5,447 nt of DNA, taken from IMG/VR virus record IMGVR_UViG_3300029517_000088, one strand, 5' to 3'. Positions 1 through 5,278 of this stretch are shown piece after piece (the first letter of the stretch is position 1; every line of letters starts with the position of its first letter). A program made the position numbers and the translations under genes. The notes beneath the pieces were generated by a model. It searched no databases. It worked only from the letters and a program-made list of their open reading frames with translations, and was not told where the DNA came from. This DNA is from a virus. Its lineage: Duplodnaviria > Heunggongvirae > Uroviricota > Caudoviricetes.

Positions 1-51
1 GCTCATGATGTCCCTCTGGGATGCGCTCCGGATGAATATGATGATCTCATA

Positions 52-141
52 TCAGGAACTTGTTCGCACCTTCCCTTTTTCACCGTCCGGATGCGCCCAG
101 GCATTCATCGCCATGCGGATGTGTTCATGCTTGATTTTCAT
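52..141 (-). CDS. Short ORF (29 codons, MKIKHEHIRMAMNAWAHPDGEKGKVRTSS) starting 17 nt inside the 3' end of ydaS; possible 5' remnant of a ydaT-like gene
   Basis: ATG at 141-139 on the minus strand overlaps the ydaS stop in a different frame. The frame closes at TGA (52-54). The other two minus-strand frames also carry stops in 1-141, so no long gene can run from here past the window edge without frameshifts. In K-12 the gene after ydaS is ydaT (about 140 aa). Confidence 0.25.
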   Translation of the reverse strand: MKIKHEHIRMAMNAWAHPDGEKGKVRTSS

Positions 142-406
142 GAATCAAGCTCCTAGAAAGTGGTTGTGTTAACATTTTGGTATCTTCCAGCTCGGGCCAA
201 ATATTCATCCAATCAAAAGGCCTTAGTTGCTGACGTGTAACTTCACCATTACTGGCTCGCTCAATAAGGACACATAACGATGCCCCTAACACTTGACCTT
301 TACTCAATGCCTTTCTTAGATAACCGATGCTGGTACCACACTCGCATGCAAACATACGCTGTTCATCTGACGAAAGAGAATTGAGAAATATTCTTAATTC
401 TTCCAT
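125..406 (-). CDS. ydaS: Cro-like helix-turn-helix regulator of the YdaS family (93 aa)
   Basis: ORF of 93 codons with a strong Shine-Dalgarno (AAGGAG, complement of 412-417) 5 nt upstream of the ATG at 406. Divergent from the repressor gene as in Rac. Sequence (CGTSIGYLRKALSKGQ...VTRQQLRP) has a Cro/YdaS-like HTH character. Symbol assigned by synteny and size. Confidence 0.75.
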   Translation of the reverse strand: MEELRIFLNSLSSDEQRMFACECGTSIGYLRKALSKGQVLGASLCVLIERASNGEVTRQQLRPFDWMNIWPELEDTKMLTQPLSRSLIHENQA

Positions 407-431
407 AGCTACTCCTTAGTAAACACAGCAA

Positions 432-459
432 AGAATACCCATAGGTAAACAAAAGTCAA
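432..459 (-). promoter_or_regulatory. Candidate sigma70 promoter for ydaS: -35 TTGACT (complement of 454-459), 16-bp spacer, -10 TATTCT (complement of 432-437)
   Basis: Read directly from the minus strand. The -35 is a 5/6 match and the -10 a 4/6 match to consensus. The predicted start is about 19 nt upstream of the ydaS ATG. Operator copy O1 overlaps the -10 and spacer. Confidence 0.45.
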
Positions 460-471
460 TACCCACAGGTT
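436..471. promoter_or_regulatory. Operator pair O1 (436-447 TACCCATAGGTA) and O2 (460-471 TACCCACAGGTT), OR-like cluster in the ydaS-racR divergent intergenic region
   Basis: Two copies of a 12-bp near-palindrome spaced 24 bp start to start. The same motif recurs at 502-513, 969-980 and 994-1005. Confidence 0.6.
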
Positions 472-472
472 G

Positions 473-500
473 TTTACCTTGCAGTAATCGCATCTATTAT
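473..500 (+). promoter_or_regulatory. Candidate racR promoter: -35 TTTACC (473-478), 16-bp spacer, -10 TATTAT (495-500); predicted start at or next to the racR ATG (leaderless)
   Basis: The -10 is a 5/6 match ending 6 nt before the ATG at 507. No Shine-Dalgarno is present upstream of the ATG, and no alternative in-frame start exists back to the stop at 417-422. Confidence 0.4.
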
Positions 501-501
501 T

Positions 502-513
502 TACCTATGGACA
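502..513. promoter_or_regulatory. Third, degenerate operator copy O3 (TACCTATGGACA) overlapping the racR start codon
   Basis: Matches the first 9 positions of the motif and spans the ATG at 507-509. Position is consistent with autoregulation. Confidence 0.35.
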
Positions 514-926
514 AATATGAATTTAGACGACAGCAACTCATCAAAATTCGTGATGAGAAATGCGATGGTAAAGCGGTTAACGTGGCCAGAAAGATCGGGC
601 GCGAGCCTTCTTATGTATCAAGAATGTTGTACCCAGAGGGGAAAAAGGGAAAAAAACGGATCGCTGATGATATGGTGGAGATTATCGAAGAGTCCTTTGG
701 GTTACCCCGGGGATGGATGGATGGTATCGTTTCATCATCAACGAACACAGCCTCCAGTTATGAAACAAGGGTTCTAACGCCACGACAACGTATTTTTTTA
801 GATCTCTTAGACGAACTGCCAGAAAGTGAAGCGGATAACTTATTAAAAACTCTTGAAGAGAAAAAACAGTATTACAATATGATCTACGAAGAAATCCGTA
901 AAAAGAAAGCACAAAACGCATCATAG
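507..926 (+). CDS. racR: Prophage repressor, RacR/DicA-like HTH protein (139 aa), no C-terminal peptidase domain
   Basis: 139-codon ORF divergent from ydaS. N-terminal HTH-like segment (AVNVARKIGREPSYVSRM). C-terminal segment (LTPRQRIFLDLLDELPESEADNLL) resembles the DicA C-terminus as I remember it. Position relative to ydaG, ydaF and sieB matches racR of Rac. My recollection of K-12 RacR is 158 aa, so the start or length may differ. Confidence 0.7.
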   Translation: MDKYEFRRQQLIKIRDEKCDGKAVNVARKIGREPSYVSRMLYPEGKKGKKRIADDMVEIIEESFGLPRGWMDGIVSSSTNTASSYETRVLTPRQRIFLDLLDELPESEADNLLKTLEEKKQYYNMIYEEIRKKKAQNAS

Positions 927-968
927 CTCACCAAACAACTAGTCACCAGTTAAGACACCGTAAAAAGT

Positions 969-1005
969 TACCCATGGGTATTTACTTTTTAAATACCTAT
1001 GGGTA
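969..1005. promoter_or_regulatory. Operator pair O4 (969-980 TACCCATGGGTA, perfect palindrome) and O5 (994-1005 TACCTATGGGTA), OL-like cluster immediately downstream of racR
   Basis: Two copies spaced 25 bp. Candidate weak promoter elements overlap them: -35 TTTACT (981-986), 17-bp spacer, -10 TATCCT (1004-1009); alternatively -35 TTACCC (968-973) with -10 TAAATA (990-995). Orientation would drive the + strand early genes. Confidence 0.5.
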
Positions 1006-3250: not shown

Positions 3251-5278
3251 ATGAGCACAAAACCACTCTTCCTGTTACGGAAAGCGAAAAAATCATCCGG
3301 TGAACCTGACGTCGTCCTGTGGGCAAGCAACGATTTTGAATCGACCTGTGCCACTCTGGACTACCTGATCGTTAAGTCAGGTAAAAAACTGAGCAGCTAT
3401 TTTAAAGCTGTTGCCACGAATTTTCCTGTCGTTAATGACCTGCCCGCTGAAGGTGAGATCGATTTTACCTGGAGTGAACGCTATCAACTCAGCAAAGACT
3501 CCATGACATGGGAACTAAAACCGGGAGCAGCACCAGACAACGCTCACTATCAAGGCAATACCAACGTCAACGGCGAAGACATGACTGAGATTGAGGAGAA
3601 TATGCTACTCCCAATTTCTGGCCAGGAACTGCCCATTCGTTGGCTTGCTCAACACGGCAGCGAAAAACCGGTAACGCACGTTTCACGCGACGGACTCCAG
3701 GCATTACACATTGCTCGGGCTGAAGAACTACCGGCTGTTACTGCCCTGGCTGTTTCCCACAAAACCAGCCTGCTCGACCCGCTGGAAATTCGCGAACTCC
3801 ACAAACTGGTTCGTGACACTGACAAAGTTTTCCCTAATCCTGGTAATTCAAACCTGGGACTGATAACTGCTTTTTTCGAAGCATACCTGAACGCTGACTA
3901 CACCGATCGAGGACTGCTGACAAAAGAGTGGATGAAGGGTAATCGTGTTTCACACATCACTCGCACGGCTTCCGGTGCTAATGCTGGCGGCGGAAACCTC
4001 ACCGATCGCGGCGAAGGTTTCGTACACGATCTGACGTCACTGGCGCGCGACGTAGCCACTGGCGTACTGGCCCGTTCAATGGATCTGGACATCTATAACC
4101 TTCATCCGGCACACGCTAAACGCATTGAGGAAATTATCGCTGAAAATAAACCGCCCTTTTCTGTTTTCCGCGACAAATTCATCACCATGCCTGGCGGGCT
4201 GGATTATTCCCGCGCCATCGTGGTTGCGTCCGTAAAAGAAGCACCAATTGGGATCGAGGTCATCCCCGCGCACGTCACTGAATATCTGAACAAAGTACTG
4301 ACTGAAACCGATCATGCCAACCCTGATCCGGAAATCGTGGATATTGCCTGCGGTCGCTCCTCTGCCCCGATGCCGCAGCGAGTAACAGAAGAAGGAAAAC
4401 AGGATGATGAAGAAAAACCGCAACCATCTGGAACAACGGCAGTTGAACAGGGAGAGGCTGAAACAATGGAACCGGATGCAACTGAACATCATCAGGACAC
4501 GCAGCCGCTGGATGCTCAGTCACAGGTAAATTCTGTTGATGCGAAATATCAGGAACTGCGGGCAGAACTCCATGAAGCCAGGAAAAACATTCCATCAAAA
4601 AATCCTGTCGATGCCGATAAATTGCTTGCTGCATCACGTGGTGAATTTGTTGACGGAATTAGCGACCCGAACGATCCGAAATGGGTAAAGGGGATCCAGA
4701 CTCGCGATTGTGTGTACCAGAACCAGCCAGAAACGGAAAAAACCAGCCCGGATATGAATCAACCTGAGCCAGTAGTGCAACAGGAACCGGAAATAGCCTG
4801 CAATGCCTGCGGCCAGACTGGCGGGGATAACTGCCCTGACTGTGGTGCGGTGATCCGAACAGTAACACTACTGCAGCCTGCTCTTGAAGCACTGAAGGAG
4901 CAATACAAACTGACCGGGCATCATCGCAAAAGCGAAATCACCTTTTATCATCGGGAGTACGGCAGAACCGAAAAGCAAAAACTGCATTTTGTTTTCATGC
5001 CCAGGGTGTGTAACGGAAAACAAAAACCTTATTACTCGGTAAGCAGTTTGGGGGCAAGGTGGAATGCAGCAGTAAAACGTGCTGGTATTCGCCGCCGTAA
5101 TCCGTACCATACGCGGCATACTTTTGCCTGCTGGCTGTTGACGGCAGGAGCGAACCCGGCATTTATAGCCAGCCAAATGGGGCATGAAACTGCGCAGATG
5201 GTGTATGAAATTTACGGTATGTGGATTGATGACATGAACGACGAACAGATAGCCATGTTGAATGCGCGGTTATCGTAG
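3251..5278 (+). CDS. recE: Chimeric ORF (675 aa): RecE (exonuclease VIII) N-terminal region, about residues 1-534, fused in frame to the C-terminal about 141 residues of a Rac-type tyrosine integrase
   Basis: From [29 protein letters not shown]... to ...[21 protein letters not shown] the protein matches the RecE N-terminus as I remember it. After about nt 4852 it continues with an integrase C-terminus carrying the HxxR box ([10 protein letters not shown]) and the catalytic-tyrosine region (MVYEIYG). GAGG lies 10 nt upstream of the ATG. Confidence 0.8.
4853..5278 (+). pseudogene. intR: 3' remnant of the prophage integrase gene (C-terminal catalytic fragment only)
   Basis: Only the distal part of the catalytic domain is present; the upstream Arg/Lys catalytic residues and the N-terminal DNA-binding domains are missing. 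Position directly upstream of ttcA matches intR of Rac. The junction coordinate is approximate. Confidence 0.65.

Follow-up and report, generated by a model that had tools for sequence, protein, structure and literature searches.

The DNA analysed here, 5,447 nucleotides in all and referred to below as the window, comes from the remnant of a Rac-like prophage: the neighbours are the Rac-like prophage genes ydaF, sieB, kilR, ydaE, racC and recE. Two genes diverge toward its left side. On the plus strand (507-926) lies an intact gene for a prophage repressor, a CI analogue of 139 aa that is identical to WP_000362155.1; on the minus strand (125-406) lies an intact gene for a 93-aa YdaS-like protein, a Cro analogue that is 100% identical to its counterpart in the same reference locus (L001, strain Combat11I9). 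Overlapping the end of the ydaS-like gene are 22 codons and 1 nucleotide of a YdaT-family gene, itself the analogue of CII (75-141, minus strand), and the remaining 74 nucleotides belong to an insertion sequence. It is very probable, from comparison with intact loci and with annotated copies of the element, that the window starts 74 nt inside an ISKpn26-type IS5 element whose outer end abuts codon 23 of the YdaT-family gene.

The ydaT remnant and its breakpoint

An earlier note on this DNA, made without database searches, had pointed to an ATG-initiated frame that overlaps the end of ydaS and closes after 29 codons, and to stops in the other two frames of the same strand. These readings hold up: the ATG is at 141-139 (minus strand), the overlap is 17 nt, the 29-codon frame (MKIKHEHIRMAMNAWAHPDGEKGKVRTSS) is closed by TGA at 54-52, and the other two minus-strand frames stop at TGA 49-47 and at 5-3. 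Three closed frames are uninformative by themselves, since closure of all of them is expected by chance about 70% of the time (three random 47-codon frames; our own calculation). The telling signal comes from alignment: from 141 down to 75 every position agrees with the intact gene, and at 74/75 the agreement breaks off sharply.

The intact reference for the remnant is the gene encoding WP_000693836.1 in strain Combat11I9 (L001, 2642-3067; 141 aa, annotated as 'toxin YdaT family protein'). Its 5' end and the remnant are identical at 67 of 67 nt, and both share the 17-nt overlap with the ydaS-like gene, which together establish descent from the YdaT family. The overlap is likewise found in other intact relatives (for example L006, 6001-6282 and 6266-6691), where the frames run for 141 codons. 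The suspicion that the partner gene is inactivated is thus borne out: what is present is a YdaT-family 5' end that starts MKIKHEHI and of which only 22 codons and 1 nt are left. K-12 YdaT, whose start the earlier note had proposed to compare, begins with the same residues.

Among 5,426 complete E. coli genomes searched with megablast, 822 match window 1-1000 at 98.6-100% identity, and in all 822 the match ends at window position 75 (100% identity) or 63 (98.7% identity). Alignment to the intact locus of L001 puts the break at 74/75, and the sequence leftward of it is the IS terminal inverted repeat, ...CTTGTTCGCACCTTCC. The 29-codon frame (52-141, minus strand) is accordingly a hybrid, because 75-141 matches the YdaT gene and 1-74 matches the IS end: YdaT residues 1-22 are joined to GKVRTSS, which comes from the inverted repeat. 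Translation would proceed through 22 YdaT codons and 1 nt, and a 7-codon read-through into the repeat would then close the frame.

The earlier note had expected frameshifts or nonsense mutations within ydaT-derived sequence. Stops in three frames are what such a model would call for, and yet there are 0 mutations in the 67 retained nt: positions 75-141 do not differ from the intact gene, and closure is due to the IS end at 1-74, which has no homology to ydaT and is identical to IS copies at 74 of 74 positions. A mutational pseudogene is refuted by the alignment with the intact L001 locus and retains practically no credence.

Could the 29-codon frame instead be a complete small gene in its own right? 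It begins with ATG and is placed for translational coupling, as such a gene might be. Its last 7 codons, on the other hand, are IS inverted repeat, and its first 22 are the N-terminus of a 141-aa protein for which structures have been solved; its 29-aa product has no match to PF06254 or to any other Pfam or NCBIfam family, and among the complete E. coli genomes and the contexts examined, none that lacks the IS was seen to conserve this 29-aa frame. A genuine small gene is extremely improbable.

In the intact 141-aa protein, PF06254 is detected at residues 47-98 (39.6 bits against a cutoff of 21 bits), a region that falls beyond the break. The predicted product of the stub is without residues 23-141 and hence without the PF06254 region. 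Going by the structures and mutagenesis of homologues (PMC9986795; PMC11879457), the recognition helix and the C-terminal tetramerisation helix would also be missing.

The IS end and its junction with ydaT

Positions 1-74 (minus strand) are the terminal 74 nt of an ISKpn26-type IS5-family element, at its transposase-proximal end. Two features assign the type: the terminal inverted repeat GGAAGGTGCGAACAAG at 74-59 (minus strand) and the adjoining 5' region of the transposase. In L003, an annotated copy, the transposase CDS begins 68 nt from the IS end; in that register the ATG falls at 6-4 of the minus strand here, which gives the transposase the same transcriptional orientation as ydaS-ydaT. 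Annotated copies are identical over 74 of 74 nt, among them those in L002 and L003 and the IS5 copy inside the Rac prophage of K-12 (L004). Canonical K-12 IS5 is ruled out by 19 mismatches in 74, against 0 for the ISKpn26-type copies. One IS end lies within the window, and the other lies outside it.

The element is abundant: window 1-80 has 5,528 matches in 1,842 E. coli genomes, with up to 43 in a genome and plasmids included, and all 5,528 fall under CDSs annotated as 'IS5-like element ISKpn26 family transposase'. (A technical note: the single match to window 1-80 at 100% identity, in SY3626, H31, belongs to an unrelated insertion near yfbL, where the flank by chance starts CTTTTT; about one such chance match is expected among 5,528 copies.)

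Two observations on other prophages may be recorded here. The IS that interrupts a lom-like gene in Rac of K-12 MG1655 (L004, 3636-4831) is of the ISKpn26 type and not canonical IS5; it is flanked by a duplication, CTTG, that does not conform to the YTAR pattern described below. In E. coli TA8571 (L005, NZ_AP024205.1, 2910-4069), which has the same immunity module, an IS1 sits at the 5' end of the ydaS-like gene, alongside the intergenic region shared with the repressor gene, and sieB contains an IS3; since both are present there, IS insertions in this immunity module recur independently.

The window starts exactly 74 nt into a multicopy IS, as a draft contig assembled from short reads would do on breaking off at a repeat; if that is what happened, it would explain the lack of leftward sequence. 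Might the 74 nt then have been mis-joined to ydaT at the repeat during assembly, the gene being intact in the organism? Draft contigs do often start within multicopy repeats, and the junction is unique among the databases searched. Exact-pattern and megablast searches of the 5,426 complete E. coli genomes, the GTDB representative genomes and the JGI metagenomes did not find the IS/ydaT junction, and an exact-protein look-up has no record of the 55-aa plus-strand ORF that spans it, so that the junction rests on one sequence. The break, however, coincides exactly with the outermost base of the IS inverted repeat, as in a true transposition or deletion junction and unlike a random chimera, and an assembly artefact is very improbable. 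Positions 1-560 were also scanned for promoters and terminators: only the divergent intergenic promoters were picked up, with nothing notable at the IS junction.

If the junction is taken as real, how did the IS come to abut codon 23? The sequences flanking the same IS end were gathered from viral contigs (L016-L135) and from reference loci, giving 115 distinct flanks. YTAR (TTAG, CTAG, CTAA or TTAA) accounts for 100 of the 115. The window's own flank, CTTT, is atypical; one of the 115 reference flanks is CTTT, and it belongs to a copy without a duplication, beside a partial gene (L002). Both ends of the element are visible at 51 distinct sites, and 35 of these are simple insertions with a 4-bp duplication. 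Of the 35 verified duplications, 32 fit YTAR, and a two-position mismatch to it occurs in none of them. (The 16 two-ended ISKpn26-type copies without a matching 4-bp duplication often have two different YTAR flanks, as is expected after recombination between IS copies.)

Two accounts have to be weighed against these numbers: 1) The IS may simply have transposed into ydaT. About 1.2 kb further left one would then meet a 4-bp CTTT duplication, the other 119 codons and, after them, the replication genes. Leftward on the plus strand this account predicts an IS of about 1,196 bp and then ...CAGCTGCCGGAACTTT, the rest of ydaT with the CTTT duplication; the left flank of the IS would end in ...GCTGCCGGAACTTT, the plus-strand continuation of ydaT, and beyond the rest of ydaT would come the genes for the 356-aa O-like protein and DUF977. 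It draws on the frequency of simple insertions (the 35 of 51 just mentioned) and on the existence of duplications that are not YTAR: CTAT twice, and CAAG/CTTG once, at the copy inside K-12 Rac. What weighs against it is the two-position departure that CTTT represents, seen in 0 of the 35 verified duplications. A simple insertion is quite possible, at a little short of an even chance. 2) The IS may instead bound a deletion or rearrangement that has removed or displaced what followed in ydaT and, probably, the adjacent O-like and DUF977 genes. One route would be a deletion that set out from an IS already present at the edge of the prophage, and a model for such a starting point exists: in strain 2017.13.01CC an ISKpn26 copy of the same orientation separates the BCCT-transporter gene from the DUF977 gene, 2.4 kb leftward of ydaT, and a deletion from that IS end to ydaT codon 23 would give the window exactly. 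Predicted beyond the IS is unrelated sequence without the CTTT duplication, for example the TTAA site between those two genes of 2017.13.01CC. The atypical flank favours this account, the only other CTTT flank (L002) being without a duplication and beside a partial gene, and so does a second deletion in the same remnant, recE'-'intR. Still, transposase-mediated adjacent deletions share the normal target preference, so that an atypical flank is not specifically explained, and the left side lies outside the window. A bounded deletion or rearrangement likewise falls just below the even mark.

The target-site statistics are suggestive rather than decisive between insertion and deletion. The two accounts are about equally likely, and the gene is dead on either.

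The second deletion is seen in a 675-codon ORF at 3251-5278, in which codons 1 to about 535 of RecE run on in frame into the final ~140 codons of IntR, the Rac integrase. The recE/intR junction is at 4848-4854, in a 7-bp microhomology (GCGTGAT) shared by the two ends. Compared with K-12 the remnant lacks 3,360 bp, namely the recE nuclease domain, recT, ralR, rcbA, xisR and about 271 codons of intR. This junction is absent from the 5,426 complete E. coli genomes and has 0 exact matches in genome and metagenome contigs; the exact-protein look-up holds no record of the 675-aa RecE'-'IntR fusion. A remnant that has lost these genes is expected to be incapable of excision and to have no RecET.

Immunity type and the likely consequences of losing YdaT

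The earlier note took the three regulatory genes for the K-12 alleles of racR, ydaS and ydaT, and this part of it does not survive. To judge by its sequence, the immunity module is of the CP-933P/CFT073 type and not K-12 racR-ydaS-ydaT: intact YdaT of this type shares 33% identity with its K-12 counterpart; the YdaS-like protein can be aligned with K-12 YdaS for no more than 28 residues; and the 139-aa repressor has no detectable similarity to RacR, a BLASTP comparison without significant alignment (best E 2.3) excluding that identity. Over its N-terminal 86 residues the repressor shares 65% identity with the cI/prophage repressor of phage mEp043, and comparison with the PDB gave only weak, sub-significant matches to unrelated proteins (best E 0.076). 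Against Pfam YdaS_toxin the YdaS-like protein scores below threshold (E 9e-6; 25.8 bits against a 30-bit cutoff). Its exact 93-aa sequence occurs in 15,318 collection blocks; in each of the 10 distinct contexts returned for it, an intact 141-aa YdaT comes next, followed by the 354/356-aa and DUF977 genes. The full three-gene unit is found in 813 genomes.

Three operator-like palindromes, TACCYATRGGTA, occupy the divergent intergenic region in an OR-like arrangement (436-447, 460-471 and 502-513). Two more exact copies, in an OL-like arrangement, are placed downstream of the repressor gene (969-980 and 994-1005). Against these 5 in the window, 0.33 are expected, and 0 shuffles reached 5. A promoter scan places consensus-like divergent promoters at 459-432 (minus strand) and 473-500 (plus strand), and the OL-like site at 969-1005 precedes the ydaG/ydaF...kilR-racC-recE transcription unit. 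The layout of operators and promoters looks lambdoid, with OR- and OL-type sets, and points to the repressor as a regulator of the leftward ydaG...kilR-recE unit as well.

A different inverted repeat, TTGATT-N6-AATCAA (TTGATTTTCATGAATCAA), is at 131-148, spanning the ydaS stop and the ydaT start; it is the sole exact match in the window (0.05 expected). Both the motif and its position are those of OM, the high-affinity YdaT operator of CP-933P (PMC9986795), and it is here the predicted YdaT operator, kept intact though the cognate YdaT is truncated.

What, then, is lost with YdaT? CP-933P YdaT shows no toxicity and is a CII-like activator; it acts on a PRE-like promoter at the ydaS/ydaT boundary and so turns on repressor expression (PMC8630535). 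The literature disfavours the label toxin-antitoxin, under which Pfam and PGAP annotate YdaS/YdaT: in K-12 the two single deletions (ydaS, ydaT) are each viable (PMC5700377), and in CP-933P YdaT is a non-toxic transcription factor (PMC8630535, PMC9986795, PMC5917428). By analogy, the remnant would have lost the CII-like activator that binds the 131-148 operator and switches on the PRE-like promoter for repressor synthesis, and, CP-933P YdaT being a non-toxic analogue of CII, only an establishment-type input to that synthesis would be removed. With an undamaged repressor, Cro-like YdaS and both operator sets (OR-like and OL-like), the remnant should stay repressed. Rightward transcripts from the ydaS promoter would run into the IS, sense to its transposase, which would leave the normally downstream replication genes either separated from the promoter by about 1.2 kb of IS or absent.

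Would an inactive ydaT make racR dispensable, as the earlier note thought it might? The claim is unsupported; it conflicts with experiments in K-12, and YdaT of the present type is reported to be non-toxic. In K-12, silencing of racR is still severely toxic in a delta-ydaT strain, and the toxicity is relieved only in delta-ydaS delta-ydaT (PMC5700377); a delta-racR mutant could be constructed only where ydaS-ydaT had been deleted as well (PMC5700373). Even for K-12 the matter is not settled, since a later study puts the toxicity mainly on YdaT (PMC11014345). The inference does not carry over to the window's locus in any case, because the repressor is not RacR and the YdaT type is one reported to be non-toxic.

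One can also think of the IS junction as something beyond decay: a selected step of domestication, in which loss of the CII-like YdaT and uncoupling or loss of the replication genes, along with the recE'-'intR deletion that takes out xis and int, would lock in a remnant reduced to the repressor, the Cro-like gene, sieB and kilR; the IS end might, in addition, drive outward transcription across the PRE-like region to the repressor gene. This is highly unlikely. The ydaT remnant is an ordinary IS-bounded pseudogene in a decaying prophage, and loss of a regulator in this way is of an already known kind. Beyond correct annotation its importance is small. The proper annotation is a YdaT-family pseudogene bounded by an IS5-family (ISKpn26-type) element, neither a mutated K-12 ydaT nor a small ORF. 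K-12 gene names, and the argument that racR is essential, are not transferable to Rac-like prophages with another immunity cassette. For the source strain the prediction is a prophage remnant without its CII-like activator and, from the second deletion, without excision or RecET functions.

Comparison with known systems

The nearest known relatives are prophage YdaT proteins of solved structure. The homologue from E. coli O6 (PDB 3C4R) is 99% identical to the intact 141-aa protein, and the window's 22 codons are the N-terminus of that protein; YdaT of CP-933P (E. coli O157:H7; PDB 8BT1) is about 86% identical to the intact YdaT of the window's type. In this CP-933P/O6 type the ydaS-like gene overlaps ydaT by the same 17 nt as in the window, and in CP-933P the TTGATT-N6-AATCAA repeat lies across the ydaS/ydaT boundary, as it does here (PMC9986795). 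The differences are two: unlike the CP-933P and O6 genes, the window encodes residues 1-22 of YdaT only; and the paaA2-parE2 toxin-antitoxin genes that follow the CP-933P repressor are absent, their place being taken by ydaG/ydaF-like genes.

K-12 Rac shares with the window its placement, next to ydaF, sieB, kilR, ydaE, racC and recE, and its layout, a divergent repressor and Cro-like/CII-like pair, with a YdaT that starts MKIKHEHI in both. It is of another immunity type (the 33% identity of YdaT, the 28-aa alignment of YdaS and, in the window, a repressor unrelated to RacR), and its ydaS and ydaT do not overlap: they are 22 nt apart, where the window genes overlap by 17 nt. The ISKpn26-type copy in the lom-like gene of K-12 Rac has the identical 74-nt end and also interrupts a prophage gene. 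It sits at a different site, and the window's copy stands apart by its CTTT flank in place of the usual YTAR.

The functional analogue is cII of phage lambda, the second gene of the rightward operon, whose product activates a PRE-like promoter for establishment of repressor synthesis (PMC8630535, PMC11879457). There is no sequence homology between the two: YdaT has a POU-like domain and forms a tetramer by way of its long C-terminal helix (PMC9986795). Unlike lambda cII, the ydaT of the window is truncated.
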